From assembly GCF_003334405.1 (NCBI RefSeq), contig NZ_QOWM01000018.1: a stretch of 64,000 nt of DNA; one strand, written 5' to 3'. Of this stretch, positions 14,069-54,994 are shown one piece after another; position 1 is the first letter of the stretch, and every line of letters starts with the position of its first letter. The position numbers were made by a program, and so were the translations under genes. The notes under the pieces are model-generated. The model had not been told where the DNA came from, did not search any database, and saw only the letters and a program-made list of their open reading frames with translations. The stretch comes from Escherichia coli (GTDB taxonomy: Bacteria > Pseudomonadota > Gammaproteobacteria > Enterobacterales > Enterobacteriaceae).

Positions 14069-14078
14069 GATAAGTAAT

Positions 14079-37470: not shown

Positions 37471-37509
37471 TTCAGGCTCCTTACGGGGTGTCGGGGCGAA
37501 GCCCTGACC

Positions 37510-37570
37510 AGATGGCAATTGTAATAGCGTCGCGTGTGACGGTATTACAATTGCACATCCTGTCCCGTTT
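37510..37570 (+). promoter_or_regulatory. oriT: origin of transfer oriT: inverted repeat 37516-37526/37543-37553 and nick-region motif CACATCCTGT at 37554-37563
   Basis: CAATTGTAATA-N16-TATTACAATTG followed by ATCCTG, directly upstream of nikA. Confidence 0.7.
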
Positions 37571-37703
37571 TTCAGGCCATTATAGCCTGTTATTTTTGTG
37601 CATCATAGTCTTATGCAGACGGCAGAGGCAGGGCGCAGCCCTGCCAGGAGGCAGTTTTTGATGATAAAATCAGACTTCAACATGAAACGGAGAGAAAGTG
37701 CCA

Positions 37704-38039
37704 ATGGCTTCTAAAAAATTTTACTCAGATGATGACATCCAGCTGGCAAAAGCTGCCTTATCGGAATTGCCGGACCTCACCGCTCAACGGAAAACATTGC
37801 GTGATTTTCTTGATGCCATTCGTGATGACATCATTGTCCTGGTAAGGACAAAGGGTTATACACTGGCAGATGTTCGTGACACGCTCAAAAATGCAGGGTA
37901 TGAAGTAGGAGAGAAGGCACTTCGTGACATTATTCGGGAAGCAGAATCGAAAAAACCATCCCGCCGTTCTTCCTCTAAAACAGCACCTAAAAAGACAGAT
38001 TCAGCCAGGAAAGATGGCATCGATATGAACAACAATTGA
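37704..38039 (+). CDS. hypothetical protein with Lys/Arg-rich C-terminus
   Basis: 111 aa from ATG 37704, GGAGAG RBS; palindrome TGTGACAATGTCACA right after stop. Confidence 0.45.
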   Translation: MASKKFYSDDDIQLAKAALSELPDLTAQRKTLRDFLDAIRDDIIVLVRTKGYTLADVRDTLKNAGYEVGEKALRDIIREAESKKPSRRSSSKTAPKKTDSARKDGIDMNNN

Positions 38040-38082
38040 TGTGACAATGTCACATCATGTTCTGAGATTATGATGATTACAG

Positions 38083-38122
38083 AAAAAAAAGCCCCGGTAT
38101 AAATACCAGGGCTTTTCTGTTT
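38083..38122. terminator. bidirectional terminator-like hairpin
   Basis: A8-GCCCCGGTAT-loop-ATACCAGGGC-TTTTCTGTTT. Confidence 0.5.
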
Positions 38123-38124
38123 AA

Positions 38125-38973
38125 TCAGACTCGTGGCGGCAATGAACCAGGATAATGCCGTGCAATAATATCATTCAGTTTTTCAACAAGGTCAGGACGC
38201 TTAAAGACAATGTGTACGGTCCCTTTCTGGTAGCCACGCACCGTAAAATATTCCCCTTCTAACAGCTTACCGACATTGTCGCCGTTCCCGAGAAATTCAC
38301 CATACTGCGCCCCGATGCTGCTCCGGAAGTCAGGAACGTTGCGCCCCTCCAGCAGATAAAACGGACGTACCAGGTCATCCAGTGCCTCTCGTCCGCTGCA
38401 GTCCAGCGTCACACGCCCGTTACTCCAGCGGTACAGCAGGTTTTCAATAATGATTTTCTTGCCCAGACGGCATGGATTGTTGGTTCTGTAATCCCATGAC
38501 AGTTTCCTGTAGACATCAATCAGTCCCTGTTCAAATGTCTGCATCTTACTGGCATTCAGATGGCGAAAAGTTGCCAGCACATTGTCCAGGGTGATTTCAG
38601 GACAGGTGTCGCTCATCAGCTGGCTGTTCCACTCATCACGCTGGCATGAACTCATGAAGGTGTACATCCCCGTATCCGTCATCAGGCGGTCCCAGATTTT
38701 ACGGTCGGCAAGACGGGTGATATTCCTTTTCACTTCTTCCGGTTTATCCATGCACCGAATGGAGTCGGTCACGCAGTCTTCAAAACCGTAAAGAAAAATA
38801 TCACCTGACGCATCAAGCAGAATCCTGCGCGCTGTCGCCAGGCATTCCATCGCCTGCATGAACAGTGCAATACCTTCGTTACGCTGCGCGATGATGCGGT
38901 CGATGGCCACAGACGGAATAACATCTGTCGTGCCGGCAGTATTCAGGTCAGCAGTGGGTAAAGTCTGATTCAT
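38125..38973 (-). CDS. hypothetical leading-region protein (oriT-proximal, first minus-strand gene to enter the recipient)
   Basis: 282 aa from ATG 38973 with GAGGAGA RBS; no motif recognised. Confidence 0.6.
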   Translation of the reverse strand: MNQTLPTADLNTAGTTDVIPSVAIDRIIAQRNEGIALFMQAMECLATARRILLDASGDIFLYGFEDCVTDSIRCMDKPEEVKRNITRLADRKIWDRLMTDTGMYTFMSSCQRDEWNSQLMSDTCPEITLDNVLATFRHLNASKMQTFEQGLIDVYRKLSWDYRTNNPCRLGKKIIIENLLYRWSNGRVTLDCSGREALDDLVRPFYLLEGRNVPDFRSSIGAQYGEFLGNGDNVGKLLEGEYFTVRGYQKGTVHIVFKRPDLVEKLNDIIARHYPGSLPPRV

Positions 38974-39014
38974 CACATTGTCTCCTCATCGTCACGACTG
39001 CCGGGTCAGCCAGG

Positions 39015-39330
39015 TCATCTCCCGGAGGAGCGAAGCTCCTTCTGCCGTCCGGGTCTTCGGGGATTTCCCCGCAGTGGACCTTTCCGACGGGGGACGCTCA
39101 CCACGTCACGGGGCAGTTGTCCGGGGGCAGACGCAAAAGTTTTTGACGCCTGCGGCAAAAAGTTTTGTGGCTGGTACATCTCTCCCCTGGATGACTGAAA
39201 CGGGATGTGGTCGTGTATGTACCCCCGGAAAGTCCGTCTGCGGAGAACGGGCCGCAGGGCGGCGGCAGGCAGGCAGAGAGAACTGCGCCATCAGGCGCAG
39301 TGGCCTTACACACCGTAAGGTGTGCAGGGA
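39015..39330. promoter_or_regulatory. structured repeat family 1, copy A (Frpo/ssi-like single-strand promoter candidate), truncated
   Basis: aligns with 41880-42375 and 48225-48728; lies 5' of the minus-strand gene 38125-38973. Confidence 0.55.
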
Positions 39331-39450
39331 GCGCCGCATCCGGCGCGACCGGAGAAAACCGACGGCACAACAACGGCATGCGGTGGTCACTGGTACACCA
39401 CTCCCGCACAGGTGAAAACAGAGAAAACCGCACGACATCTACAACTAAAA

Positions 39451-39552
39451 AAAGTGAAATTTCTTCACTTTTTTACACTTATTTATTGCGTTGATTTGGT
39501 GATTGTGATGATAAAATAAAGTGAAGTTTTTTCACTTTTTCAAAGGTGTTTT
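39451..39552 (+). promoter_or_regulatory. promoter flanked by two palindromic operators AAAGTGAA-N6-TTCACTTT
   Basis: palindromes at 39451-39471 and 39518-39540; -35 TTGATT 39491-39496. Confidence 0.5.
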
Positions 39553-39804
39553 ATGACCGGCTGGGAACTGCGAATCTGGCGAAAAAGCATGCTCTGGTCA
39601 CGCGAAAAAGCGGCCAGAGAATTTGGCGTGACACAGAGAACATGGCACGCCTGGGAAAATGCGGATCAGGTGGATGTCACCGTCTGGAGGACCACCCAGG
39701 CACTTTCAGTCCGTGACCTGCTGCCTCACATGCAGGGGATGCGCAAGGCAGATATCATCAGGCGTCTGGAAAATGAACTGGGGGAAACGGCAGAGGATGT
39801 GTGA
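39553..39804 (+). CDS. small helix-turn-helix (XRE/Cro-like) DNA-binding protein
   Basis: 83 aa; HTH-like segment WSREKAAREFGVTQRTWHAWENA; only plus-strand gene in the leading region. Confidence 0.55.
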   Translation: MTGWELRIWRKSMLWSREKAAREFGVTQRTWHAWENADQVDVTVWRTTQALSVRDLLPHMQGMRKADIIRRLENELGETAEDV

Positions 39805-39834
39805 GCGTGATTCACAGCCTGGCTGAATGCCAGG

Positions 39835-39993
39835 CTACTGCTCATCAGGAAACAGTTTTTTCAGTTCTTCACCGGAAAGTCCGGTCGCCTCCTGAATCCG
39901 TTCCGGCGGCCAGCCCATATCCCGCAGCCGGCAGGCTATTTCCCGCGCCACTTCAAGAGCGCCTTTTTGAATAAGACGTTCTGCAATCGTCAT
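39835..39993 (-). CDS. free-standing RpnS-like small protein (homolog of Rpn C-terminal tail)
   Basis: 52 aa from ATG 39993: MTIAERLIQKGALEVAREIACRLRDMGWPPERIQEATGLSGEELKKLFPDEQ, parallels the last 61 aa of adjacent Rpn. Confidence 0.45.
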   Translation of the reverse strand: MTIAERLIQKGALEVAREIACRLRDMGWPPERIQEATGLSGEELKKLFPDEQ

Positions 39994-40055
39994 GCTGTTT
40001 GCTCTGCTCCTGCTGGCAAAAAAGCCCGGGATTTTGCCGGGCTTTGCGGTTCTCA

Positions 40056-40970
40056 TTAGTGAGTTATTTTCTTCAGTTCGTCATCGGAAAGTCCGGTAGC
40101 CTGCTTAATCTGCTCCGGCGTCATCCCCATTTTCTGAAGCTGGCACGCAATAGCCAGGGCTTTTTCAAGCGCTCCTTCCATGCGTCCTTCCATCCTGCCT
40201 TCCTGGCGACCTTTTTGCTCAAGACGTTCTGCGATAGTCATCAGTTTATCCTCATGCTGCGGCAGACGCTCAGCCAGCGCCCGCATAAATTCCGGTGATA
40301 CAGAGTCCCCTGCGTTAACGATGTAATGAATCAGAACACGCACCTGCTCGTCTGAAATTTCCACCATGACCTGCGGGAGTTTGTCCAGCAGCTCCATCAT
40401 GTCACGATGGCGGATATGCTTCATCAGCAGCGTCAGTGCGGCCATCCGGCGATGGTTCATGATTTCATTGTCATCAACGACAGTGATATCAACCAGCGGA
40501 AACGGCTTTGTGTATATTTTAGCCGCAAGTGCCGGATTCTCAAAACAGTCCAGCCAGTTCATGCTGTACGGATACGGGCTGCGCTCACCATGATAGAACA
40601 GCACCGGAATCACCAGTGGCAACGTTTTGTGCTGCTCCAGATGTCTCTGCATCGCCGCCACACTGTAACGTAACATGCGGAAAGGCATGTACAGATTTTC
40701 GGTGCTCTGGTGCTCGATGAGCGTATAAACATAGCCATCTTCACCCCCGGTGGTTTTCACGCTCCAGAGGATATCGCTGGCGTACTGATGCAGGTCCGGC
40801 TCAACAAAGGTGGCGGGTTCCAGCTTCAGCGTGGACAGGTCGCACAACTGCCGGTACTCCGCCGGAAGATGCAGTTCCAGAAAATCTCTGGCGACGTCGG
40901 GATTCGCCAGGAACGACCGGAACGCGGCATCGTGCGGCGTGGGCGTTGTGGTGTTTTTCTTCTTACTCAC
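40056..40970 (-). CDS. Rpn-family (YhgA-like, PD-(D/E)xK) recombination-promoting nuclease
   Basis: 304 aa from GTG 40970 with AGGAGG RBS; motifs DGYVYTLIEHQSTEN, in-frame internal Met MTIAERLEQKG 61 aa from the end. Confidence 0.65.
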   Translation of the reverse strand: MSKKKNTTTPTPHDAAFRSFLANPDVARDFLELHLPAEYRQLCDLSTLKLEPATFVEPDLHQYASDILWSVKTTGGEDGYVYTLIEHQSTENLYMPFRMLRYSVAAMQRHLEQHKTLPLVIPVLFYHGERSPYPYSMNWLDCFENPALAAKIYTKPFPLVDITVVDDNEIMNHRRMAALTLLMKHIRHRDMMELLDKLPQVMVEISDEQVRVLIHYIVNAGDSVSPEFMRALAERLPQHEDKLMTIAERLEQKGRQEGRMEGRMEGALEKALAIACQLQKMGMTPEQIKQATGLSDDELKKITH

Positions 40971-41034
40971 GGTTCCTCCTGGTGAGATGTCTGAACGTAT
41001 CCTGCCGCCTGCACAGGCAGACGGCAAGGGTTAA

Positions 41035-41301
41035 TCAGTGGCAGACCCGCTCAATTTCAAGCGCGCGGAGCAGGTGGCCCCATTCGCTGACTTTCATGGC
41101 GGGGATACGCACCCGCTTCTGCTCACTGCAGCGTCTGGCGATATGGCCGCTCATCGCCAGGACGTCCGGGTTAATCTCATCCTGTGCCAGCTCCTGACGT
41201 CTGAAGCGGGTATGGCGGTGCAGGGGTTTATTCTCCCGCAGGCACTCTTCACGCAGACGCTTTACATACTCGGCGGTTGCGAAGATAATTGATGGTCTCA
41301 T
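41035..41301 (-). CDS. hypothetical leading-region protein
   Basis: 88 aa, GGAGA RBS. Confidence 0.5.
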   Translation of the reverse strand: MRPSIIFATAEYVKRLREECLRENKPLHRHTRFRRQELAQDEINPDVLAMSGHIARRCSEQKRVRIPAMKVSEWGHLLRALEIERVCH

Positions 41302-41394
41302 GGCATAATCTCCATAGATAGTGATTGAGATGCCGGACTTCCTGGCGGGGAAGCGCCGGCGGAGAGAGGCAGGGTTTATCGCCCTGCCTCTTTT

Positions 41395-41829
41395 TCATTT
41401 CGGACAGCGACGCAGTGCCAGCGCGAGCGCTTTCATCTTCCAGCCTTCCGGCGTGCGGTACATCACCTTCCAGTAGCCGTCGATGAACACATAATGGAAG
41501 CGCACCTCTTCAGTGCTTTCAGTGGCAATAGCTTCCCTGAAAGAACGGTACTCACGCGCCTCACTGTCCATCCGGAAACCACTGTCACGTCCGTAATAAG
41601 CCGTCACACCGTCCACCGGGTTCTGAAGCGTATGCCCGGCGGGTTTGTCGCAACGGGGACCGAGGCAACGGATATCACCGTGTTCAACCAGGGCTTCGGC
41701 CTGCTGACCGGTGGCATAGTGGGTATGCAGGATGCGACCGTTCCAGGTCGGCTCACCGTGCAGGTGGCAGTAAACGGTACGGAACACCCCGTCGCGGCAA
41801 AAAACGGAAATCGTGCTGCTGACAGTCAT
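41395..41829 (-). CDS. hypothetical leading-region protein
   Basis: 144 aa, AAGGAGA RBS, immediately 3' of repeat copy B. Confidence 0.55.
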   Translation of the reverse strand: MTVSSTISVFCRDGVFRTVYCHLHGEPTWNGRILHTHYATGQQAEALVEHGDIRCLGPRCDKPAGHTLQNPVDGVTAYYGRDSGFRMDSEAREYRSFREAIATESTEEVRFHYVFIDGYWKVMYRTPEGWKMKALALALRRCPK

Positions 41830-41879
41830 GAAAACGTCTCCTTCTGCTGAATCAGGTCGCCGGGCCGACCGGTTGCTCC

Positions 41880-42375
41880 CCGGAGGGGCGAAAGCCCCTT
41901 CTGCCGTCCACTTCTTCGGGGTTTCTCCCCGCAGTGGACCTTTCCGATGGGGCGTCCGTCACCACGTCACGGGGCAGCTGTCCGGGGGCGGACGCAAAAT
42001 TTTTTGCCGGGTTTATGGCTAAAAATTTTGTGGACGGTATATCTTCCCCTGGACTGCTGAAACGGGATGTGGTTACTCCAGCCCCCGGAAAGTCCACAGC
42101 GGGAAACAGGCCGCAGGGGTGGCGGCGGAAGGGTTGACTGCGCCATCAGGCGCAGTTGCCTTACACACCGTCAGGTGTGCAGGGAGCGCCGTTTCCGGCG
42201 CGACAGGGGCGGCGCGACCGGAACGGTCGCTGCAAGCCTGGTTTTTCAGACATCGGACCGTAGCGGCAGCCCGAAACCGCGCCAGCGGGTTCGGCGGAGA
42301 CTGGCGGGTGCGCCAGCAGCTGCCTGTCGGAGTCGGGCCTGACGACCGGATGCCGCCAGGCAGCCGGGAGCCGAA
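41880..42375. promoter_or_regulatory. structured repeat family 1, copy B (Frpo/ssi-like single-strand promoter candidate)
   Basis: ~500 bp, near-identical to 48225-48728; many internal hairpins (CTGCGCCATCAGGCGCAG, CACACCGTCAGGTGTG). Confidence 0.6.
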
Positions 42376-42557
42376 GGTGTCCCCGCCTCCGGAAATCAGA
42401 ACAACAGAAACGACATAACAGAAAAATGCCTCACACCATGACGGGCAGGAAGGGCAGCGCCGCAGGCGCGGCCCTCCTGCATTTCAGGCAGGCGTAAGCC
42501 TGCCAGGGTTTTCCGGCGGCCTGGCAGGCCATACCCCCGCCGGAGCGGGGGAGTAAA

Positions 42558-43058
42558 TCACCGACGGAACACATGACCGTCAATAAAGGTGAAGGAGTCC
42601 AGGAATAAATCCCGCGCATACGCCTCATAGTCAAAATAGAGCGCCACCGTCTCCGGCACGTCAGCCAGCAGGCCGGTATCACTGGCGAACTCAACCGCAA
42701 AAGCCTCCTCACTGTCAGCCTCGCCCCACCAGGCATCGCGGAAGGTGTCAAAATCCGTCTCACCGGTATCATCCACCCAGAGACGATAAGCCTCTTCGCA
42801 GCCTTCATCCCGCGCCTGGCGGAAGCCTTCAACCCAGGCCCAGTTGATATGACATTCAGAGGCCATATTCCCCGGGAATCCCTCATAATCCTGAAACATC
42901 AGTTCAGGATCGGCTTCATCCTGGTGAAGAGCACGGCAGGCGGCGAAAAAGTCGCGCTCATCATCAAACGTGGTCAGGTCAAACCAGCGGCCAGCGATGC
43001 TTCCACAGTTGTATTTGTGCCAGGTTCCAACGTATACAGCAGGGGCAACAACAGACAT
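42558..43058 (-). CDS. ardA: antirestriction protein ArdA (DNA mimic)
   Basis: 166 aa from ATG 43058: [34 protein letters not shown], very acidic. Confidence 0.8.
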
Positions 43059-43085
43059 TCCCGAATCCTCCATAGTCACATGTTC

Positions 43086-43396
43086 TGCGACACCGGGCGG
43101 TGCCGTGCCTCCATAAAAGCCGGGCGATAAGGCGGGGATGCACAGGGCGCAAGGGAAGCCGCAGCCTGACGCACACGGCTGGCGGGAGTTGGAGGGTGAG
43201 ACCGCGAAATCTGAGCGGGTGAACGACCGGAAAATCACGGCAGACGGGAAGGAGGGACCGGGTGACCGCAGCGGCGAAGCGTACCCTTGCATCCCTGCCA
43301 GCCCGGCTAAGATGGAGGCACGGCACAGCCCGCACACGATACGGCGGCCACAGAGCTGAAAACCCACAAGGCCATGCCCCGCATGGCCGGGTAAAA
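43086..43396. repeat. structured repeat family 2, copy 1 (~310 bp, identical to 50040-50349)
   Basis: direct comparison of the two stretches; immediately 5' of ardA. Confidence 0.7.
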
Positions 43397-43520
43397 GCGG
43401 AGCCGCCGGCGACTTCCTTATTCCGGCGAGTGCAGAGGACACGCCGCATGACCTCCAGACCACCCCTGATATGAAACGATCATGATCGGCGTGTCCCTGC
43501 GTAAAATATACATGCCTGGT

Positions 43521-44117
43521 TCACCGGAGAATATCTGTGATATCCACAAGTTTTCTGTCGCGCAGCCAGTCCTGCGCTTCACGCACCACACAACTGTCCG
43601 GTTTCACCGCTTTCAGCGATGATGCCAGTCGCTTGATCAACATCACCAGTTCCCGTGTCTGTATGTCCGGCATTGTCTCCGGCGGAGCAGGGGGACTCTC
43701 ATTTCCGACGCTCATCCCATGCGCTTCCAGTGTGGCACGGACAAACCAGGCGGCATCGACCAGTTGCTGGCGAATCCAGGCCAGATCGGTATTTCTGTCA
43801 CGGGCTGCCATTCGCTCGCCCGACAGCGCCTTGCTGATATGGCTGCGCACCAGATTATCCAGGAGTGCCTGCGCTTCTTCCGGTGAAAAGCCACCTGGTA
43901 TCTCTGTGCGCAACAGCCCTTTCCTGTACAGAAGCTGCAGCAGATCAACCTGCGACCGCACAGCAACTATCAGTACATAACGGACAACATTCGCACTGGC
44001 AGTGGTTTCTGTATCATTCAGCAGTTCTTCCGAATCGTTCCCCCCGGTGTTGCAGAGCAACGGCAACAGAGGTCGCATCCACGCGGGAACCTGGTATTTT
44101 TCGTCTGATTTCATCAT
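43521..44117 (-). CDS. hypothetical leading-region protein
   Basis: 198 aa from ATG 44117, ATGA overlap with psiA stop. Confidence 0.55.
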   Translation of the reverse strand: MMKSDEKYQVPAWMRPLLPLLCNTGGNDSEELLNDTETTASANVVRYVLIVAVRSQVDLLQLLYRKGLLRTEIPGGFSPEEAQALLDNLVRSHISKALSGERMAARDRNTDLAWIRQQLVDAAWFVRATLEAHGMSVGNESPPAPPETMPDIQTRELVMLIKRLASSLKAVKPDSCVVREAQDWLRDRKLVDITDILR

Positions 44118-44833
44118 ATTACGTTCTCCAGCTTGTTCGGGATCATCCACTGCTCAAGTGCACGTACCTGTACCGGTGCACCACGACCGGCCTCACCGGC
44201 TTCAAAAATCAGCCGCCAGAGTGGTTCCTCCTGCCAGAAAAACCGGTCAAATGATGACAGTGATGGAAAACGCCCGCACCACCCCCAGAAAATCGTTTCC
44301 AGATCATGCTCCTCAACAACACCAGACCAGCGGGACAACCAGCTTCCGACCGTGGCGGGAGTATGAAACGCAAGGTCAATCTGCGCCTGAGCAAAACATG
44401 TCTGGTATTCCAGTTCCCGTCGTTCTGCCTCACGTTCCCGCTGGCGGCTGTATTTCTGCTCTGTCAGCGTGGTTTTCTGACGACGACGCTCACCTTCACG
44501 AAAAGGCACGGACGGGAACAGACGGTGCCCCGCATCGGATGGCAGGGGAAGAACACAGACTTCACCAAAACTTTCAATCAGTTTATCCACGGCAGCCAGC
44601 CACAGGAGACGGTTGCCATGAAATTCCTCCTTCGTCAGCGCAGGGGCAAAAAAGCGGAGATCGGTCAGCGAAATCCGGCGACTGCCATTCAGGCAGCGAA
44701 AGAAAGCGGTGGCATAAGGCCATGCTGAAAGTGTGCGTCCCTGACGACGACGTTGTTCTGTGACAGCCACCGCCTGCATGGCGGCCTGTTGTTCTGCGCT
44801 GAGGGGGATCAGTGCCCGTGAACGTGCGCTCAT
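44114..44833 (-). CDS. psiA: plasmid SOS-inhibition protein PsiA
   Basis: 239 aa, [18 protein letters not shown], overlaps psiB stop. Confidence 0.8.
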
Positions 44834-45267
44834 GCCTGACCTCCTTCTGCCATCAGGATATGAATGATGTCGTTAACACTGTATCCCTGCGCATCCAGTG
44901 TCGCGGCAAGCGCCAGCGTGTGACTGATAGCGACAGGCGTGAAGATATGTTGCACCTGAACGACGGCGAAAGGCTGTCCACCACCATTCACCAGAACCAG
45001 CATCCAGAGCTGAGAGACCTCTCCCGGCGAACATAATGCCAGGTGGAAACGTTCGTGGGCTGGCGTGAAACGAACCTGGACGGGGAAAAAGCCCCCGAAC
45101 TCGCTGCCATACTCCCCGTTCATCATCCAGTTAGCCGGTGCGTCCACTTCACGCATCACCTCGTGAGTGAGATTACGGCGCATATCGCTTCCCGCAGCAC
45201 GGATATCTTCATATTCCTGTGCGTTCATGGACTGCAGGGCATTCAGGGTCAGTTCAGTTTTCATCAC
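44830..45267 (-). CDS. psiB: plasmid SOS-inhibition protein PsiB
   Basis: 145 aa, [28 protein letters not shown]. Confidence 0.85.
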
Positions 45268-45318
45268 GGTATCTCCCTTGCTGCCGCCCCGTCTCCGGCG
45301 GGGCGGTGTGGTTGTTCA

Positions 45319-47277
45319 TCAGGCGGCATCAGCCAGGTTAGCGGTGTGTTCAGTGGCATCCGTCTGTGGACGTGGCGCACACATCCAGCCAGGCACCCAG
45401 CGGTTGTCTTTCATATGGAACTCTGCATGTTCAGCCGCATCGCCTTTCTTCATTTTCTCCGCGTCCCGTGCGGCACCGGACAGTCCGGCCTCATTCAGGG
45501 CTGCGATAATCTGCGGCTTTTTCAGGTGTCCGAAGAAGTTTGCTTTTGTCGGCTGCCACCAGTCGCGCATGTGAAAACCGATGGCGCTCTCCAGCGTGTC
45601 CAGCGGGCTGCGTGACGTGTGACCACACTCACGGGTCTGGACACCGTTAAGGCTGCACGCGGTGCAGAAACTGAGCAGGGATAACAGCACCTCCTGACTG
45701 AGTGACAGGAACGTCGTCATGTCCCGTGACCATCCCTCCGGTAACAGGGCCGCAAGACGGGCTTTTTCTGCCATCATCGACAGGAATGCGGCACCTTCCT
45801 TCCCTGACGGCGCATCGCTGGTCAGCGAATAATGTTTACATTCCAGGCTGATTTGTGCTGGTTTACTGTACGCTCCGCTGCCAAACACATTCAGGCAGAG
45901 CGTCCACGCCAGCAGTGCCAGAGATTTGTCCGGTTGCTGCATCAGTGCCGCCTGGACTGCCAGCGTGCGTTCGGAAGACATTTTCGTCAGCAGTGGCAGA
46001 CTGATTTCCTCCACTGATGCTTTCTCCTGCACCTGTTCCGTGCGGTCAGCGTCGTCAGCAGCGTCATCTTCACTGCGCAACTGCACACCACGCTGGACAC
46101 ACACATTACCGTAACGCCAGGACACCACCACACCGCTTCCGGCACGCATCTCCGGCGTCCACGCCCTGACCTTCGCCATGCAGCGCATCAGCTTCATTTC
46201 TGCTTCCAGCAGGTCGGATTCCTCACACTGGTTTTCCAGCGCGTCGTAACGCGTCATCAGTTCGTTCAGGCGTTCTTCTTCCGCCTCCGTCAGCACCGCT
46301 TCCGGCTCCGGCAGACAGCGGTATGTTCCGGCATCCTCACGGCACTCACCGACAGGCTCCATGCGCCCGGCGCACCATTCCCAGCCTTCGGCTTCCCGAA
46401 GGTGTTCAGCGACAGCCTGGAGTTTTTCCAGCAGGGCAGCATCGAGTGCCACGCAGTCCACATAGCCACCCTCGTCGTCGCTGAACAAATCGGTGCGCAG
46501 TTCATCTGGCGAGAAGGCATCAGCCCCCACGAAGCGGAATTTACTGTTCCCTGCCACCGCCACTTCACTTTCGGTCACCAGACGACGAATGGTCTGCACT
46601 TCCGGTTTACCGCCCCATCCCGACTGACAGGCGGCTTCAAACACCTGCACCTGACGCGCGGTGTCGTTCTCCAGCGCCAGCGCTTGACAGTGTTCGGTGG
46701 TGATGCGGTCTTCTGCCAGCGCATCGAGGATGACAGGCGCAAGGTCTGCCAGTTTCAGCATTCGCTGAACGTGGCGGGGTGAATAGCCCAGCAGGTCGCC
46801 AATCTGCGCAGATGTTTTGCCTTCCTGCGCCAATGCGCGGAATCCGGCAATCTGTTCGGCAGGGTGCATATCCCGACGATGACCGTTCTCGGTCATCGAT
46901 GCGGCAGTCGCCAGTTCCTGCGGGATGACCTTCACACGGACAGGCCAGTCAGCCGGAAGGATGTTGCGCTCTGCCAGCATGTTGAGTGCAGCCAGTCGGC
47001 GACCACCTGCGGCGACACCGTAACGGTCACCAGGCAGGGTATGCACGACCAGATTCTGCAACAGGCCAACGCCCTTAATGGACTCAGCCAGTTCGCTGAC
47101 GGACTCCACAGAATACGGCACCGTGCGCACATTCAGCGGTGATTTAATCAGTGAGGCCAGCGGCACGCTCACTTCCTCCGTCTGCGCCAGCAGGGCAGAC
47201 AGGGCAGTTTCCTGCGTTTTTGCAGATTTACGGCTTGCTTTGCGGGTGGTTTCTGGTTCACACTTCGTTACAGGCAT
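45319..47277 (-). CDS. ParB-like nuclease-domain protein of leading region
   Basis: 652 aa from ATG 47277; ParB N-domain motif VAAGGRRLAALNMLAE. Confidence 0.65.
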   Translation of the reverse strand: MPVTKCEPETTRKASRKSAKTQETALSALLAQTEEVSVPLASLIKSPLNVRTVPYSVESVSELAESIKGVGLLQNLVVHTLPGDRYGVAAGGRRLAALNMLAERNILPADWPVRVKVIPQELATAASMTENGHRRDMHPAEQIAGFRALAQEGKTSAQIGDLLGYSPRHVQRMLKLADLAPVILDALAEDRITTEHCQALALENDTARQVQVFEAACQSGWGGKPEVQTIRRLVTESEVAVAGNSKFRFVGADAFSPDELRTDLFSDDEGGYVDCVALDAALLEKLQAVAEHLREAEGWEWCAGRMEPVGECREDAGTYRCLPEPEAVLTEAEEERLNELMTRYDALENQCEESDLLEAEMKLMRCMAKVRAWTPEMRAGSGVVVSWRYGNVCVQRGVQLRSEDDAADDADRTEQVQEKASVEEISLPLLTKMSSERTLAVQAALMQQPDKSLALLAWTLCLNVFGSGAYSKPAQISLECKHYSLTSDAPSGKEGAAFLSMMAEKARLAALLPEGWSRDMTTFLSLSQEVLLSLLSFCTACSLNGVQTRECGHTSRSPLDTLESAIGFHMRDWWQPTKANFFGHLKKPQIIAALNEAGLSGAARDAEKMKKGDAAEHAEFHMKDNRWVPGWMCAPRPQTDATEHTANLADAA

Positions 47278-47335
47278 AATCATCCCCTTATAATTGCTTA
47301 TGTCCTGCCGGACGTTCGCGCGTCCGGCACCTCTC

Positions 47336-47608
<273 letters not shown>

Positions 47609-47626
47609 TTATCACAGTCAGGCCAG

Positions 47627-48157
47627 TCAGAACGGGATATCGTCTGAAAACCCGTAATCGTCACCCTCCGGCGGTTGCGGCTGAGGCTCCGGCTGCGCGG
47701 CCTTTCGTCCACGGCCTTTCGTTTTCGCGCCACCTTTTTTCGTGGCAGCCTCCGGCTGAGGCTGACCGCTGAACTGTGGTGTGCCGTCCGGCTGAGTCTG
47801 AGTTCCTGCGGCACGTCCCAGCATCTGCATGGTGCCCGTGGTTTTAACAAGGATTTCGGTGACGTAGCGGGTGACACCGTTGTTGTCCTCCCAGCTACGG
47901 GTGCGAAGCTGGCCTTCGATGTAGACCTGCGCGCCCTTGCGCAGATATTCACCGGCCACTTCCGCGAGCTTGTCGAACAGCACCACGCGGTGCCATTCCG
48001 TCAGTTCCTTAATTTCTCCCGTCTGTTTGTCGCGCCAGCTTTCTGACGTGGCCACCTGCAGGTTTGCCACTGCGCCCCCGTTGGGGATGTAACGGACTTC
48101 CGGATCATTGCCCAGACGCCCGACGAGGATGACCTTGTTGATACCACGTGCACTCAT
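47627..48157 (-). CDS. ssb: plasmid single-stranded DNA-binding protein
   Basis: 176 aa; OB-fold N-terminus [23 protein letters not shown], Gly/Pro/Gln-rich linker, acidic tail DDIPF. Confidence 0.9.
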
Positions 48158-48224
48158 AAGAACCTCCTGACTGAAAGATGTGAGATAAACCGGATACCGG
48201 CGACGGGACGTTCATGTGCCCCTT

Positions 48225-48728
48225 CAGAGGAGCGAAAGCTCCTCCTGCCGTCCACTTCACAGGGGTTTCTCCCCGCAGTGGACCTTTCCGATGGGGGCCC
48301 GTTTACCGCCTCACGGGACAGCTGTCCGGGGGCGGACGCAAAATTTTTTGCCGGGTTCATGGCTAAAAATTTTGTGGCCGGTGCATCTCACCCTGGACAG
48401 ATGGAACGGGAGGGGGTTACGTCTGCCCCCCGGAAAGGTCCACAGCGGGGAAACAGGCCGCAGAGGTGGCGGCAGGAGGGAAGACTGCTGCGCCATCAGG
48501 CGCAGTTTCCTCACACACCGTCAGGTGTGCAGGGAGCGCAGGTTACGGCGCGACAGAGGCGGCGCGACCGGAACGGTCGCTGCAAGCCCGGGTTTTCACG
48601 CATCGGACCGTAGCGACAGCCCGAAACCGCGCCAGCGGGTTCGGCGGAGACTGGCGGGTGCGCAAGCAGCTGCCTGTCGGAGTCGGGCCTGACGACCGGA
48701 TGCCGCCAGGCAGCCGGGAGCCGAAGTG
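48225..48728. promoter_or_regulatory. structured repeat family 1, copy C (Frpo/ssi-like single-strand promoter candidate) 5' of ssb
   Basis: ~500 bp near-identical to copy B. Confidence 0.6.
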
Positions 48729-48928
48729 GGCGCAATAAAAGACAGCCAGAAACGGTGACAGTGTCACGGAATATCACACCTGTTCCTGGCATACAGTCAT
48801 ACACTACCTTCTGACCGGAAAGCCGGGCCGGCAGCGCCGCAGGCGCTGCACCCCGCGTTTCCGGCAGGCGTCAGCCTGCCAGGGGTTTTCGCGCGGGCTG
48901 ACAGGCGGCCTCCACCGCCTGCCCTGTA

Positions 48929-49120
48929 TCACCTGTTTCTGCTGCCCTGAAGGATATAGTGACCACCGAGGAAAACCGCCTGCTGATTCACCACAAAATC
49001 GCAGATTTCATCAACAATCTGCGCAGTGGTGAGCGGTTTCTGCCCCATTTCACGACGCCGCGCATTAATCACGGCTTTGTAATTGCGCAGAATTTCGCGG
49101 GTTTCTGTGCTGATATTCAT
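48929..49120 (-). CDS. hypothetical small protein
   Basis: 63-aa ORF overlapping stop of upstream gene. Confidence 0.4.
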   Translation of the reverse strand: MNISTETREILRNYKAVINARRREMGQKPLTTAQIVDEICDFVVNQQAVFLGGHYILQGSRNR

Positions 49121-49539
49121 GACATGTGCTCCCCGTCCAGCGCCTGTAACACAACGTCCATCGCTTCGCGTTCTTCCCTGACGAATGCGTCACCGTCGCC
49201 CCCGTTCTCACTCCCGACGGCATACAGGCGCTTCATTTCACTGCCTGCCAGCGCCACCACTTTTTCCAGCATCACCGCCGGGACTGTCACCTGACGGCTG
49301 ACGCGCTTTTCTTCCATCAGTTCACGAACAACGTCGTGAACAACGCTGACATCCGCACCATGCTCAAAGGCATCGTCCAGCCGCTGCATGACGGTTTCCA
49401 GCTCATCGTCTGACAGGTTCCAGTCCTGGGCTATGTGACGCACATCCCCACGGGTCAGCACCACGGCAAAAACGCATTCACTGTCCGGCACGTCTGTATC
49501 CAGCACTTCGCGGATAATTTCTTTAACAGTACAGTACAT
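49117..49539 (-). CDS. hypothetical leading-region protein (paralog of 51256-51705)
   Basis: 140 aa; shares MY.T.EI..E...LSD.E..TV..RL.D and RQV.VP pattern with the 149-aa ORF. Confidence 0.6.
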   Translation of the reverse strand: MYCTVKEIIREVLDTDVPDSECVFAVVLTRGDVRHIAQDWNLSDDELETVMQRLDDAFEHGADVSVVHDVVRELMEEKRVSRQVTVPAVMLEKVVALAGSEMKRLYAVGSENGGDGDAFVREEREAMDVVLQALDGEHMS

Positions 49540-49585
49540 TTTCTCGTCTCCTTTACAGGGGCGGCATTGCCGCCCCGTCCGTTAA

Positions 49586-50011
49586 TCAGTCCAGAGCCGC
49601 GTAAATCGCGTTGCATTCAGGGTGAAATTCGATGTGACGCCACAACTGCGCATCGCGCATCCGGTAAAGCTGGGTCAGTCCTGCATCACCGCTGTCGTGG
49701 TACAGCCACAACTGGCGGTTAATCACAAGGGAAGTCAGAATGATGCCGCAGGCATCAGCACTCACGGTACGGTCAAACCAGTTTGCACCGTTCACTATGT
49801 GGAAACGGTCGCCATCTGGCATCATGTAGCCGCCACCGTCCGGCAGGCGGATGAAGTGCCAGAATCCGCCTTCATATTCCGGCATCATTTGTTTCGCCAG
49901 CGCGTATACAGACGCTTCGGCATACAGAAAATCCTGGCCAAACAGGTAAGGCAGAAAAGACAAACGGTCGCACTCTTCAACGTTCAGAGTGACAGGTTTC
50001 GCATATTGCAT
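49586..50011 (-). CDS. KlcA/ArdB-family antirestriction protein
   Basis: 141 aa; family-like motifs [43 protein letters not shown]. Confidence 0.65.
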
Positions 50012-50039
50012 GATGTTTTCCTCCGTTGTTCACATATTC

Positions 50040-50349
50040 CGCGACACCGGGCGGTGCCGTGCCTCCATAAAAGCCGGGCGATAAGGCGGGGATGCACAGG
50101 GCGCAAGGGAAGCCGCAGCCTGACGCACACGGCTGGCGGGAGTTGGAGGGTGAGACCGCGAAATCTGAGCGGGTGAACGACCGGAAAATCACGGCAGACG
50201 GGAAGGAGGGACCGGGTGACCGCAGCGGCGAAGCGTACCCTTGCATCCCTGCCAGCCCGGCTAAGATGGAGGCACGGCACAGCCCGCACACGATACGGCG
50301 GCCACAGAGCTGAAAACCCACAAGGCCATGCCCCGCATGGCCGGGTAAA
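50040..50349. repeat. structured repeat family 2, copy 2 (~310 bp, identical to 43086-43396)
   Basis: immediately 5' of the KlcA-like gene. Confidence 0.7.
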
Positions 50350-50428
50350 GCGGAGCCGGCGGCGACTTCCTTTGTGCTCTGTCCGGGGACCGGCAGGAAA
50401 AAGGCGGGAATTTACCCCGCCAGTGTCA

Positions 50429-51256
50429 TCATTTCCGGATTTTTGCCAGGGCATCCGCCATGCTGCGGATTTCGGTCCGGGCTTCCCGGACCACCTCCCG
50501 CAGAACACCACGGTCAAACCAGCGGCGGGGCGGTTCATCGGGTATACGCAGCACATCGCAGGCCAGCCCACTGGACAGGATATGCTCAATACAATCGCTG
50601 ACCAGGTACATTTCCACCGACGAAAAACGTGCTCCCCGGTTCACTATGGCATCGAGCACCACGGGCAGGTTTTCGTCATCTTCATCGAGCCAGCAGGGGT
50701 GATCGCTTTCCTTCACGACCAGGCGAAAGCGGCGCGTCTGGCGGGTCAGCAACGTCTGACCGGTGGTGGTCAGCGCCGCACGGATACGCCGCGCATCTTC
50801 TGCCACCTGGTAACAGATGCTTCGTACCGCATCGTGCACCGCATCAAGAACAGCCCTGATTTCGTCTTCGGTCAGCCATTCTCCGGCATACGGGAAAGAC
50901 ACCTGCGTTCCGTCTGCCGGAAGTACCGGCAGCGATTGCCACTGACTGCCGGACAGTACCAGTTCCGCCCCGGTTCCGGTCAGTCTCTGAATGGCGGAGG
51001 CCAGGAGCGGCGGCAGCACGCCGCCGTGACGGTTGATAAGTAAGGTCGCCAGCCGGGGCGCATCCAGCAGAACATAAATGCTGATCCAGCCCGGATACTT
51101 CGGGTTACGCTGGTCAACATCCGTCTCTTCCGGCCAGCCCTGCGCCAGCAGCAGGTTGCGGGCGTGACGACAAATCAGTGCGTTCAGCGTGCTGTTTTCG
51201 TTCATGATTAAGCGTTCTCCCTGTATCGCCGCCCGCAGGGCAGGCGGCGATAACAT
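50429..51256 (-). CDS. hypothetical leading-region protein
   Basis: 275 aa; start overlaps upstream stop (TGATG); alternative ATG 51205 has GGGAGAA RBS. Confidence 0.55.
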
Positions 51257-51705
51257 CAGTTGTTTTCGTGTGTGTTGTTTTTCAGCAGGCTGCGGGCCTG
51301 ATTAACCACCGCCTGACGACGGGTGACGCATTCCGGGACGGTGAGTCCGTTATCACGGGCGGCCCATTCACGCTTCCACAATGCCTGTTCAGCGGTCTGA
51401 ATCAGGGACGCCAGCAGTTCAACAGGGACGGACACCTGGCGGTTTTCGCTCACGTTGCTGATAATCTCCATCGCAGCGGCGGAAGAAATACCGGACTCAA
51501 TCCGCTGGTCTTCCGGGATGTCCTCCAGGCGCGCCAGGACAGTCCTGATTTCATGATCGGACAGGGAAATATCCATTCCGTCAGCGAGGGCCTGAATCTC
51601 TTCCGGGGACCAGACAACCAGCATCAGTGGCGTGTCTGCCGGATACTTTGCTGCCAGCTCCCGGCAGAGTATTTCGCATGTTCCGTACATACTCTCTCCC
51701 CTCAA
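51256..51705 (-). CDS. hypothetical leading-region protein (paralog of 49117-49539)
   Basis: 149 aa, ATGA overlap with upstream gene. Confidence 0.6.
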
Positions 51706-51923
51706 TCTTTGAAGCAGGAATCCAGTTCCAGAATTTCGGTATATGCCTCCATCAGGAGGCGGTTTGCGCGAAACAACGTCTGACGCACCAGACGTTCCGG
51801 CAGGGTGTCAGCATTAAAGCTGTACCGCCGCTCCATCTCATTCATGGTTGTACGCAGGTCGCACATGGCATTGGCCACCTCCGCCACTTCGGCGCGAAGT
51901 TTTTCATGTCCGGCATAGTTCAT
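51702..51923 (-). CDS. hypothetical small protein
   Basis: 73 aa, adjacent to methyltransferase stop. Confidence 0.45.
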   Translation of the reverse strand: MNYAGHEKLRAEVAEVANAMCDLRTTMNEMERRYSFNADTLPERLVRQTLFRANRLLMEAYTEILELDSCFKD

Positions 51924-52607
51924 TTACGCAGCCTCCGGCATAAACCAGTCATCATTTGCGGCCCCCTGCTGCATGGCCCGCTGTACGGCAGCCAGACGTT
52001 GCTGTCCGGCACGGTGATACTGCTCAAGCAGCTCGATACCGATATACCGGCGTCCGGACTGAAGGGCGGCCACGCAGGTTGAGCCGCTGCCTGCAAACGG
52101 GTCCAGCACAATCGCGTTCGGATGTGTGAAGCTCTCAATCAGTGGTTGCAGGCTGGTAACAGGCTTTTCCGTCGGGTGATGACGATTGCCTGAATATTTC
52201 CAGCCCAGCACGTCGGGTAATGGCTTCTGAGGCAGCGCCGGACGGCCTTTTGCCAGAACGTAGGCGCATTCGTGGCGATAACCCACATATGCGGCCTTCG
52301 ATGTGTAGTTTTTGGTGAAGACCAGGTGCCCAACCACACTGAATCCCGCATTTTTCCAGGCGGCCATAAAGCGATCGACGCGGTTCCAGCCGTAGAAGCT
52401 GACCATCAGCGCATCTTTTTTGAGTACGCGATACATTTCATTACAGGCTGGTTGCAGCCATTCATCGGTTTTATCGCCGGCGATGGTACGCCCCTGTCGG
52501 TCACGAAAACCGACGAGGTATGGCGGGTCAGTCAGTATGAAATCAATGCCGTTATCAGGAATACGCGCCATAACATCAATGCAGTTACCGAGGACAAAAC
52601 GGGACAT
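51924..52607 (-). CDS. orphan DNA methyltransferase (N6-adenine/N4-cytosine class, beta-type motif order)
   Basis: motif IV DPPY followed by motif I LDPFAGSGST; AAGGAG RBS; no adjacent restriction gene. Confidence 0.8.
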   Translation of the reverse strand: MSRFVLGNCIDVMARIPDNGIDFILTDPPYLVGFRDRQGRTIAGDKTDEWLQPACNEMYRVLKKDALMVSFYGWNRVDRFMAAWKNAGFSVVGHLVFTKNYTSKAAYVGYRHECAYVLAKGRPALPQKPLPDVLGWKYSGNRHHPTEKPVTSLQPLIESFTHPNAIVLDPFAGSGSTCVAALQSGRRYIGIELLEQYHRAGQQRLAAVQRAMQQGAANDDWFMPEAA

Positions 52608-52991
52608 AACAACACTCCTTCTTTCTCAGAGGGCACCGGGAGGGCACCCCTGTGGTGCCCGTTCCCCGCTGCCTGTGGGCTGTTCACCGCGTCCGGTAAC
52701 GGGTCAGGCCGACCGTGGAATATCGCAGCCGTCGTCTTTTTGACGGCGAGAATATGCCGCGAAAGCGGCTTGAAGGGCGTTCATCAGAAAAGGGCGACAG
52801 GCTGGCGTACACTGTCACCGACGCCAGCCGGGAGCGGTAAAAGCGCCCGTCCCGTGCCCGCCGGACGCGGGACACTGACCACAGGCAGCGTTTATGCCGC
52901 GCCGCATCAGCCGGCGCAGTAAACAGAGGAGCACGGCGACATCCTTTGTCGGAAAAGAAACGGGCGGTTGCCCGCCCGTCTCCGTCATACT

Positions 52992-53918
52992 TCATCCACC
53001 GTAATGCGCCACCTTGTCGACTATCCACGCAGGTCCGGTGACTTCCGGCAGCTCATCGTCATCTGTCGGGGAAGACCATTCCAGTTCCCCCCAGAGCACA
53101 TCAACGAGCTCTCCGCGCTCATACAACTGCCAGCCACAGAAATTGCAGCCCTGTTCGGCGTACCAGTGCTCCAGCGTGCAGCCGAAACGGCGGCTTAATG
53201 CTGCAACAACGTCGCTTTCCGGCTGACACCACGGCGTGTCGAAATCCACCTGAATGCAGTTGTCTCCCTGACTACTGATATTCAGGTCATACCCACAAGG
53301 CCACTTCACGCCATACCGTTCTGTATACCAGTGATATGCAGAAGGAACACCGTTCAGAACACCACCATTAAAGCCATTCACTTCAACATCCAGGCGGGTC
53401 GGCAGAACCGTCAGCAGGTCAAACGGCATGGTTTTTTCCGGCACTACGTTGTCACACAGACGGTTCCACCACACCGATACATCCTCGCTACCCCAGATGT
53501 CACACCAGTCACCTCTTTTTGCGGTGAAATGCACAGTGATGGTTTCCCTGACATCATCCGGTAATCCTTCCCAGCGACGCTGTCCAGTACCGCTCTGCAG
53601 CCAGAGCTCATGCAGCATCAGGCAGTTTTGCTCATCCAGCAGTACACCGTTCTGCAGGTGTGTCAGCCAGCGGGTGAACGCGATATTTTCCGTCGATACA
53701 GCACCACGTCCGGCAGCCGTCACTCCGGGGCACTGTTCAGAGCGGATATTTTCAGTGATCTGCAGAAGTCCGGCACTTCCGGCCAGAAACAGCTGAATAC
53801 CTTCATTTGTGGCGCGGCGATAAAGCGGTGTAACTGCACCGCTGGCCAGTCGTTTAATCTCAGCGATCTGTGCCGGTTCACCAGAAAAATACATACGATT
53901 CGAGCACCAGTTTGGCAT
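52992..53918 (-). CDS. hypothetical Cys/Trp-rich leading-region protein
   Basis: 308 aa from ATG 53918 (MPNWCSNRMYFSG), AGGAGA RBS. Confidence 0.55.
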   Translation of the reverse strand: MPNWCSNRMYFSGEPAQIAEIKRLASGAVTPLYRRATNEGIQLFLAGSAGLLQITENIRSEQCPGVTAAGRGAVSTENIAFTRWLTHLQNGVLLDEQNCLMLHELWLQSGTGQRRWEGLPDDVRETITVHFTAKRGDWCDIWGSEDVSVWWNRLCDNVVPEKTMPFDLLTVLPTRLDVEVNGFNGGVLNGVPSAYHWYTERYGVKWPCGYDLNISSQGDNCIQVDFDTPWCQPESDVVAALSRRFGCTLEHWYAEQGCNFCGWQLYERGELVDVLWGELEWSSPTDDDELPEVTGPAWIVDKVAHYGG

Positions 53919-54242
53919 GGGAATTCTCCTCTCACATGCGGCCTCCATCAGGCCGTGCCGCACCTGTTACCGGGCGACCGCATACGAATGCAGGTGCGGC
54001 CCCGAAGCCGCAGCGCGTGGAGGAGGAACGACGAAACGTGACCGGGTGAGGAGGCCGGCGACAGCGACACACTTGCATCGGATGCAGCCCGGTTAACGTG
54101 CCGGCACGGCCTGGGTAACCAGGTATTTTGTCCACAGAACCGTGCACAAAATGCTGTGGATAAGCTGGACACAGCAGCCCACAGCAGGCATACAGCCACA
54201 CACTCAGAGAATTGAGCGTTTTTTAGTCACAACAATGACATT

Positions 54243-54290
54243 TGACTGTGTGCGGATTCAGTTATTAGAATACTGTATATACATACAGCA
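54243..54290 (+). promoter_or_regulatory. imp promoter (-35 TTGACT, -10 TAGAAT) with LexA/SOS box TACTGTATATACATACAGCA at 54271-54290
   Basis: CTGT-N8-ACAG palindrome 22 bp upstream of impC start. Confidence 0.75.
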
Positions 54291-54311
54291 AAAGAAAAGG
54301 GAGATGAGAAC

Positions 54312-54560
54312 ATGATCCGCATTGAAATTCTTTTCGACCGCCAGAGCACAAAAAACCTCAAATCAGGCACACTTCAGGCGCTACAGAATGAAATCGAACA
54401 ACGTCTGAAACCACACTACCCGGAAATCTGGCTGCGTATAGACCAGGGCAGCGCCCCGTCTGTATCTGTCACAGGAGCCCGCAACGACAAGGATAAAGAA
54501 CGTATCCTGTCTCTGCTGGAAGAAATCTGGCAGGACGACAGCTGGCTGCCTGCAGCATGA
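54312..54560 (+). CDS. impC: DinI-family SOS regulator ImpC
   Basis: 82 aa, MIRIEILFDRQ ... DDSWLP, DinI-like pattern. Confidence 0.75.
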   Translation: MIRIEILFDRQSTKNLKSGTLQALQNEIEQRLKPHYPEIWLRIDQGSAPSVSVTGARNDKDKERILSLLEEIWQDDSWLPAA

Positions 54561-54994
54561 GTACCGTTTATCACCGTCCGGCTGACCCTTCAGGCGATGA
54601 CAGTTACGTGCGACCGTTGTTTGCCGATCGTTGCCAGGCCGGTTTTCCTTCGCCTGCCACTGATTATGCTGAGCAGGAACTGGATCTGAACAGCTATTGC
54701 ATCAGCAGACCTGCAGCCACCTTCTTTCTGCGCGCCAGCGGTGAATCGATGAACCAGGCTGGCGTGCAGAATGGTGATCTGCTGGTAGTGGACAGGGCCG
54801 AAAAACCACAACACGGGGACATCGTTATCGCTGAGATCGACGGTGAGTTCACCGTCAAACGACTGCTGTTGCGCCCACGCCCGGCACTGGAGCCGGTTTC
54901 AGACAGCCCGGAGTTCCGCACACTGTATCCGGAAAACATCTGTATTTTTGGTGTTGTCACTCACGTGATACACAGGACGCGGGAGTTACGCTGA
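54557..54994 (+). CDS. impA: UmuD-like translesion synthesis subunit ImpA
   Basis: 145 aa, LexA/UmuD-type S24 peptidase motifs (ASGESM, GDLLVVDRA). Confidence 0.8.
   Translation: MSTVYHRPADPSGDDSYVRPLFADRCQAGFPSPATDYAEQELDLNSYCISRPAATFFLRASGESMNQAGVQNGDLLVVDRAEKPQHGDIVIAEIDGEFTVKRLLLRPRPALEPVSDSPEFRTLYPENICIFGVVTHVIHRTRELR

Follow-up and report, generated by a model that had tools for sequence, protein, structure and literature searches.

In a 64,000-nucleotide (nt) stretch of Escherichia coli plasmid DNA (the window; contig NZ_QOWM01000018.1 of assembly GCF_003334405.1), two nearly identical copies of a repeat are found immediately 5' of the antirestriction genes ardA and klcA. Based on sequence identity, a predicted fold and experiments published for close homologs, we consider it very probable that each copy is a class 2 single-stranded DNA (ssDNA) promoter, known as ssp2 in the F plasmid, which would be active while the transferred strand (T-strand) is single-stranded and would then drive ardA or klcA. 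This is an element that has already been described, since the window copies are 95-97% identical to the class 2 promoters of the plasmid pESBL and to F ssp2, and there is no new biology in the element itself.

Comparison of the window with itself gave an exact core of 309 nt with 0 mismatches (43088-43396 = 50042-50350, offset 6954), and a repeat of this length within 64 kb cannot have arisen by chance. Similarity reaches further on the left to 43076, with copy-specific mismatches at 43082 and 43086, and on the right to 43419, with a 1-nt indel at 43393 and one mismatch at 43406. The whole repeat is about 344 nt long, and we call the one 5' of ardA copy A (43076-43419) and the one 5' of klcA copy B (50030-50372), both given on the + strand, which for this element is the functional, transferred strand. 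The original prediction had placed near-identical copies of about 310 bp at 43086-43396 and 50040-50349; these limits were right within 1-2 nt, but the full repeat is longer. It had also been stated that the copies end shortly before both antirestriction start codons, and indeed the ATG codons of ardA (43058) and klcA (50011), both on the - strand, were 30 nt from the exact core and 18 nt from the looser similarity. The first gene downstream of copy A is ardA itself (42558-43058, 166 amino acids), and the first downstream of copy B is the klcA/ardB-type antirestriction gene (49586-50011, 141 amino acids).

Identity with published class 2 promoters

The IncI1 plasmid pESBL has six early-induced leading-region operons, each behind a large T-strand hairpin (Wen et al., NAR 2025, PMC12672017). 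These hairpins were sorted into class 1 (ssi1-3), class 2 (the two 5' of klcA and ardA) and class 3 (one 5' of the M.EcoGIX methylase), of which classes 2 and 3 are conserved in F (PMC12672017). Starts mapped by 5' rapid amplification of cDNA ends agree with the predicted starts, and RNA sequencing showed an induction early in transconjugants only, prolonged when a uvrD mutant delays the conversion from single- to double-stranded DNA (PMC12672017). In F, ssp2 drives yfgB, a KlcA/ArdB homolog, and synthesis of the complementary strand stalls where the stem of ssp2 ends, independently of transcription; the stall lasts until UvrD resolves it and in this way prolongs expression from ssDNA promoters (bioRxiv 10.64898/2026.01.09.698686). 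The same preprint reports that ssp3 equals ssp2 in promoter strength without having roadblock activity (bioRxiv 10.64898/2026.01.09.698686).

We used pESBL and F (NC_002483.1) as reference plasmids for direct comparison. In pESBL (L004), the element at 13946-14315 stands directly 5' of ardA and is 96% identical to copy A, and the element at 6999-7368, beside klcA, is 95% identical to copy B. The single element of F (L002, 12383-12753) is 97% identical to copy B and occupies the intergenic region 5' of yfgB, where the preprint places ssp2. Over about 355-372 nt, the window copies showed identities of 94.9-96.0% to pESBL and 95.5-97.3% to F, which places them by homology with class 2/ssp2, and a class 2 profile gave scores of 194-196 bits for the window, pESBL and F elements alike. 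With such close relatives at the same genes, the idea that the two repeats serve as a shared, dedicated early promoter for antirestriction genes is well supported. The element is also abundant, a database match having found it in at least 5000 plasmid records.

The closest known case is therefore pESBL class 2, which comes from the same plasmid family and has the same predicted hairpin at both of the same positions (5' of klcA and 5' of ardA) with 95-96% identity. The two pESBL copies are 96.5% identical, whereas those of the window are identical over the 309-nt core, and the greater likeness of the window copies is due to more recent gene conversion. The F element is placed like copy B, in front of the KlcA/ArdB homolog yfgB; however, F has one copy and no ardA, whereas the IncI1 window has two copies and so, by analogy, potentially two barriers.

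Classical Frpo/ssi elements, our first guess for the identity of the repeats, were rejected, as the published Frpo1-3 of ColIb-P9 and ssiD of F map to another repeat family of the window alone. A repeat finder places that first family near 39.0-39.35, 41.9-42.4 and 48.2-48.7 kb, and the published class 1 sequences match 39023-39349, 41881-42206 and 48227-48556 alone, where the class 2 profile is silent. These three are the published class 1 ssi1, ssi2 and ssi3 of ColIb-P9, with 99%, 86% and 82% identity to ColIb 'Frpo2'. Neither BLAST nor a profile hidden Markov model connects the two families, in line with the original prediction that they are unrelated, and ssi2 cannot be the ardA promoter because ardA lies upstream of it. 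The principle of class 1 is the same, a leading-region T-strand hairpin that rebuilds -35 and -10 elements and functions in the single-stranded state alone (Masai & Arai 1997; Bates et al. 1999; Couturier et al. 2023), and its members are likewise dispersed direct repeats able to recombine, but they drive ssb/psiB and other operons, not ardA/klcA. Judging from the predicted fold, our repeats would thus have a Frpo-like architecture, that of a leading-region T-strand hairpin promoter, without belonging to Frpo by sequence. Closer in sequence are some candidates listed by Samuel et al. (Nature 2024, Supplementary file 4): 'Frpo' 4' aligns with the window repeat along about 345 nt at 82% identity, and Frpo* 1 and Frpo* 3 match the right-arm core of the repeat. 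Those candidates are purely computational, come from an insect-gut metagenome element and were not set apart there from the classical Frpo family.

The folded transferred strand as a predicted promoter

In a database comparison the window matches R64 best, and its genes are arranged as in the leading region of IncI1 plasmids: from the left come trbC, nikB and nikA, then on the - strand DUF4942, Rpn, ardA, psiA, psiB, a parB-like gene, ssb, klcA, a methylase gene and DUF1281, followed by a dinI-like gene and umuDC. The core of the origin of transfer, oriT (37487-37575, + strand), consists of a 17-bp inverted repeat and the motif CACATCCTG|T and adjoins nikA. We take the motif, on the + strand at 37554-37563, to be the presumptive nick site by analogy with those of R64 (reported by Furuya & Komano 1991) and IncP. 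With a presumed nick site in this place, we regard the + strand as the one transferred, higher coordinates entering first. The leading-region genes are all on the - strand and point toward the nick motif. Leading-region anti-defence genes are published as using the T-strand as template, and this agrees with the assignment of the + strand. By gene order and oriT motif, the repeats are members of the leading region, each immediately 5' of an operon that has the T-strand as template. The same region contains another direct-repeat pair (39856-39965 and 40068-40177, 110 nt, 75% identical and separated by 212 nt), close to where the Rpn-family nuclease gene region begins.

Secondary-structure prediction on both strands, which had been proposed as a check, gave a strong fold for the + strand and a weaker one for its complement. 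As ssDNA, the + strand from 43060 to 43430 (371 nt) folds with a free energy of -95.8 kcal/mol (z -5.4), and the hairpin at 43090-43336 alone with -74.3 kcal/mol (z -6.2), compared with -63.0 for the complement. The main structure, derived from the ssDNA fold and covariation, is an imperfect hairpin of about 240 nt on the T-strand at 43094-43332 (50048-50286 in copy B), in which a template arm at about 43094-43150 pairs with a non-template arm at about 43279-43332. In an alignment of 29 long-form members, with the window's own fold taken as the structure, 23 of the 80 pairs were altered on both sides. Paired cells made up 81% of the alignment in this register and at most 47% in any slid register, and the covariation score was 0.198 against at most 0.059. 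The hairpin thus has strong covariation support across the Enterobacterales.

The higher-coordinate arm must be the non-template arm, because RNA polymerase can get to ardA only by moving along the T-strand toward lower coordinates. On this arm of the + strand we assigned a -35-like hexamer, TTGCAT, which is fully base-paired (43287-43292; 50241-50246 in copy B), and a -10-like hexamer, TAAGAT (43308-43313; 50262-50267), of which positions 2-4 are predicted to lie in a 3x3 internal mismatch opposite AAA at 43115-43117. The spacer is asymmetric, with 15 nt on the non-template arm and 19 nt on the template arm. The -35 is paired and the -10 mismatched in 28 of the 29 aligned members, and both features, together with the 15/19-nt spacer, are kept across clades. 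From the pair list, transcription is predicted to start on the - strand at 43104-43107, near 43105 (about 50058-50061 in copy B), some 7 nt past the -10, and the RNA would run toward lower coordinates with an ardA leader of about 47-49 nt. The predicted fold (z -5.4 to -6.2), the covariation and the hexamers together describe a large stem-loop with rebuilt -35 and -10 elements. In duplex DNA the same hexamers point away from ardA/klcA, and a scan of 42900-43600 for canonical sigma-70 promoters and intrinsic terminators gave none. A promoter is thus predicted solely in the folded, single-stranded T-strand, opposite in sense to its duplex hexamers.

The following mechanism can be proposed. During conjugation, the + strand would enter the recipient with its 5' end first, beginning at the oriT nick near 37563, and each repeat, while still single-stranded, would fold into the imperfect hairpin of about 240 nt, whose stem mimics a duplex promoter. 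The higher-coordinate arm would provide the non-template strand with its paired TTGCAT and partly open TAAGAT, and the lower arm the template. Host sigma-70 RNA polymerase would begin transcription close to the base of the hairpin (about 43105 and 50059) and proceed outward along the single strand into ardA or klcA. Because transcription would start on DNA that is still single-stranded, the antirestriction proteins would be made before the plasmid becomes a duplex target for restriction. Synthesis of the complementary strand would then destroy the hairpin and turn the promoter off. As in its homolog ssp2 of F, the hairpin, which is very stable, probably also stalls this synthesis until UvrD unwinds it, and this would lengthen the single-stranded phase of expression; roadblock activity of both IncI1 copies is suggested by the same analogy.

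Several points weigh against this interpretation. The start-site, induction and roadblock data come from the homologs in pESBL and F and not from the window plasmid, and roadblock activity is reported for the single F copy only, in a preprint (bioRxiv 10.64898/2026.01.09.698686). The hexamers and the start sites are our own assignments from fold geometry, and the hexamers are weak when compared with the consensus (TTGCAT 3/6, TAAGAT 4/6, with a spacer of 15 nt), such that a simple sigma-70 scan does not call them. The genome set behind the alignment was retrieved by a pattern that fixes much of the right arm, and the conservation of right-arm bases is therefore by construction, the left arm being outside the pattern. 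Finally, many of the compensatory changes stem from a split into a few clades, and therefore the independent events are fewer than the cell counts would imply.

Perhaps the main role of the repeat is structural, as a roadblock to replication and/or a priming signal for the complementary strand, with the promoter being secondary. We consider this possible but doubtful. The stall at F ssp2 does occur independently of transcription (bioRxiv 10.64898/2026.01.09.698686), and the class 2 hairpin is far more stable than the class 3 hairpin (-74 versus -49 kcal/mol), class 3 being the one reported as an equal promoter without roadblock. A promoter function remains compatible with all of this, however, and deletion of ssp2 in F abolishes expression of the downstream antirestriction gene, with a phenotype that is partly rescued by another promoter (bioRxiv 10.64898/2026.01.09.698686). 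In addition, about 80% of the family members have an antirestriction gene as their direct downstream neighbour, as would be expected of a promoter more than of a mere barrier, and a roadblock in both IncI1 copies is itself an extension from the F homolog. The roadblock is likely to be an additional function of the promoter hairpin rather than an alternative to it.

It appears improbable that the element acts in RNA, terminating or processing read-through transcripts from upstream and insulating ardA and klcA. Read-through RNA would hold the whole hairpin, and beyond the hairpin base there is a conserved distal part (+ strand, 43336-43419; 50290-50372 in copy B), made up of a small hairpin and the motif AAAGCGGAGCCG..GCGAC(T/A)TCCTTA, which on the - strand reads as a small G+C-rich hairpin followed by a T-containing tract. 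However, the RNA fold of this segment was no better than that of shuffled sequences (z -0.9) and it is not a canonical intrinsic terminator; moreover, no Rfam family was found in 38000-56000, and with the predicted start no more than about 12 nt of the stem would belong to the ardA mRNA. Among diverged members from other genera, conservation of at least 70% is seen in the distal motif but not in the sequence around it.

The repeats might also be ordinary double-stranded promoter and leader regions, duplicated with the 5' ends of two operons, in which the hairpin is incidental. Their position immediately 5' of two genes would be consistent with this, and either strand of any inverted repeat can fold. 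We nevertheless regard it as very unlikely, as there is no sigma-70-like promoter toward ardA/klcA, the sole -35/-10-like hexamers being those on the + strand that face away in the duplex, and as covariation keeps the long-range stem; furthermore, the 95-96% identical pESBL elements are induced early in transconjugants only, and for longer in a uvrD mutant (PMC12672017). That the repeat encodes a small protein is hardly credible, in spite of the open reading frames of 70-114 amino acids that cross it and of the 'YubH family protein' or hypothetical coding sequences annotated over the hairpin in CP048414.1, NZ_CP107061.1 and LC567051.1, and was rejected: four repeat-crossing frames match no NCBIfam family, stops or frameshifts break the 73-amino-acid frame on the + strand in 27 of the 29 aligned members, the length differences between hairpins are not multiples of three, substitutions follow base pairing, and long open frames are expected in 67% G+C DNA, those annotations probably being spurious frames in G+C-rich hairpin DNA.

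Relatives in other genera and the short element before the methylase operon

Relatives of the class 2 ssDNA promoter were searched for in one genome per species, using the right-arm core CTTG-N11-GCCCGGCTANNNT-N3-GNCACGGC. The pattern was found at 47 loci, nearly all from Enterobacterales and including Pantoea, Erwinia, Enterobacter, Yersinia, Rahnella and Klebsiella. Most loci possess a left arm that pairs with the core, at a distance of 140-150 nt in a long form and of about 90 nt in a short form. For 55 motif-bearing elements of other Enterobacterales, we then classified the gene that follows first, and this was ArdA in 17 cases, an M.EcoGIX-like orphan methylase in 15, KlcA in 12 and unclassified in 11; the first-frame caller was crude, and starts inside the hairpin gave false N-terminal extensions. 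Identity of the downstream proteins to the window genes went down to 37-55%. Because about 80% of the relatives precede ArdA, KlcA or an orphan methylase, the family is tied to anti-restriction functions well beyond IncI1 and IncF.

Four Enterobacter/Lelliottia-type loci (L005, L007, L034 and L035) each have two elements about 2.56 kb apart, a long-form hairpin 5' of ArdA and a second, diverged long form directly 5' of the orphan methylase. Judging from the sequences, the methylase in these loci appears to be driven by a full-length class 2-type element and not by a short one. Some enterobacterial leading-region elements were found on contigs of non-enterobacterial assemblies, namely L007 and L008 (Streptomyces morookaense) and L029 (a Collinsella metagenome-assembled genome). 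The elements of L008 and L029 hardly differ from the class 2 element of IncI/IncF, and L007 has both the ArdA and the methylase copies; all three are most likely the result of contamination or mis-binning. The match in L042, a Lachnospiraceae metagenome-assembled genome, folds unlike the family and may be a chance match to the pattern.

The window also contains a short homolog of the hairpin family, on the + strand at 53950-54112, 5' of the operon formed by DUF1281, a hypothetical gene and the DNA methylase. It was recognized by profile, fold and alignment. A profile built from long-form class 2 hairpins only matched the + strand in two collinear pieces, with model positions 10-78 at 53950-54018 (E-value 2.5e-4) and 164-240 at 54034-54112 (E-value 6e-9), and the same two-piece pattern was obtained in pESBL, R64 and F. 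The short homolog shares with class 2 the basal stem, the -35/-10 core CTTG-N11-GCCCGG(C/T)TA...T...GGCACGGC and the motifs GAAGCCGCAGC and GACCGGGTGA, and lacks about 85 apical positions; its fold has -49 kcal/mol, versus -74 for class 2. It aligns with the short-form elements of other genera, whose consensus fold has the same architecture with 13 of 37 pairs compensatory.

We infer that 53950-54112 is probably the published class 3/ssp3 promoter, because it lies in the sole large intergenic region 5' of the methylase operon. Class 3 has been called different from all other hairpins (PMC12672017), and our sequence comparison does not support that. If the site is correctly assigned, the sequences suggest that classes 2 and 3 are homologous and that class 3 is a shortened form. 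The gap in stability between the two classes parallels the reported presence and absence of the roadblock. It is tempting to go further, and as a tentative proposal that we think has some chance but is more likely wrong in part or in whole, classes 2 and 3 may be one Enterobacterales family serving ArdA, KlcA/ArdB and the orphan ssDNA methylase, in which the apical extension of about 85 nt and the longer stem make the roadblock. The two IncI1 roadblocks, kept identical by gene conversion, might then stage the conversion from single- to double-stranded DNA in two steps.

Gene conversion, natural deletions and meaning for plasmid establishment

The cores of the two class 2 copies differ least in the window, where they are 98.8% identical (and fully identical over the central 309 nt), and more in R64 (97.1%) and pESBL (96.5%). 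A T at 43340 is private to both window copies, the five other sequences having a C there, and six differences between the A and B copies of R64 (43210, 43341, 43343, 43345, 43353 and 43355) are erased in the window. At the same time, copy-specific markers on the outside of the tract, at 43082/43086 and 43393/43406, have been kept. The pESBL copies in turn share a haplotype of their own at 43143-44, 43192, 43201, 43220 and 43294-96. The copies therefore evolve in concert, and in the window plasmid a recent tract of conversion covers about 43087-43392 at most. The gene conversion that the original prediction had put forward, next to a recent duplication, to explain such high identity across 7 kb is supported by the private T, the lost R64 differences and the retained outside markers.

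Direct repeats of this length had also been thought capable of deleting the ssb-psi block between them, and we looked for such events in related plasmids with a synthetic junction composed of the ardA side, one repeat and the flank upstream of copy B. This junction was contiguous in 27 plasmid records, of which four were inspected. Three of the four (pTW11681_74, pMTY12368_IncI1-I and one Shigella flexneri plasmid) presented a clean loss, with the order methylase ... hypothetical gene, one repeat, ardA, oriT and with klcA-ssb-parB-psiB-psiA absent; two of these three are typed as conjugative. The junction data cannot prove the direction of the event, that is, loss or gain. The fourth record, the IncI-gamma/K plasmid pDE105 (L052, NZ_MG569891.1, 2852-7459), has one class 2 repeat, then ardA, then klcA 9 nt further on, and therefore not all of the 27 junction records are simple deletions. 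In pDE105, a group II intron (ltrA) is located between the klcA operon and ssb. There is a precedent in class 1, where a 9.7-kb leading block is present or absent between Frpo repeats and laboratory conjugation is unchanged, and the recombination risk for Frpo1/Frpo2 in F was discussed by Couturier et al. 2023.

These results are modest refinements to what is known of the class 2 element: covariation over many enterobacterial genera and a tie to three types of anti-restriction gene, to which are added the concerted evolution of the IncI1 copies and the natural loss of the ssb-psiB block between them. Class 3, being probably a cut-down class 2 hairpin, also hints at the part of the structure on which roadblock function might depend. 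Through ssDNA promoters, anti-defence genes are expressed in the minutes before the plasmid turns double-stranded, and it is this interval before the duplex that decides whether a resistance plasmid becomes established in a new host with restriction systems.

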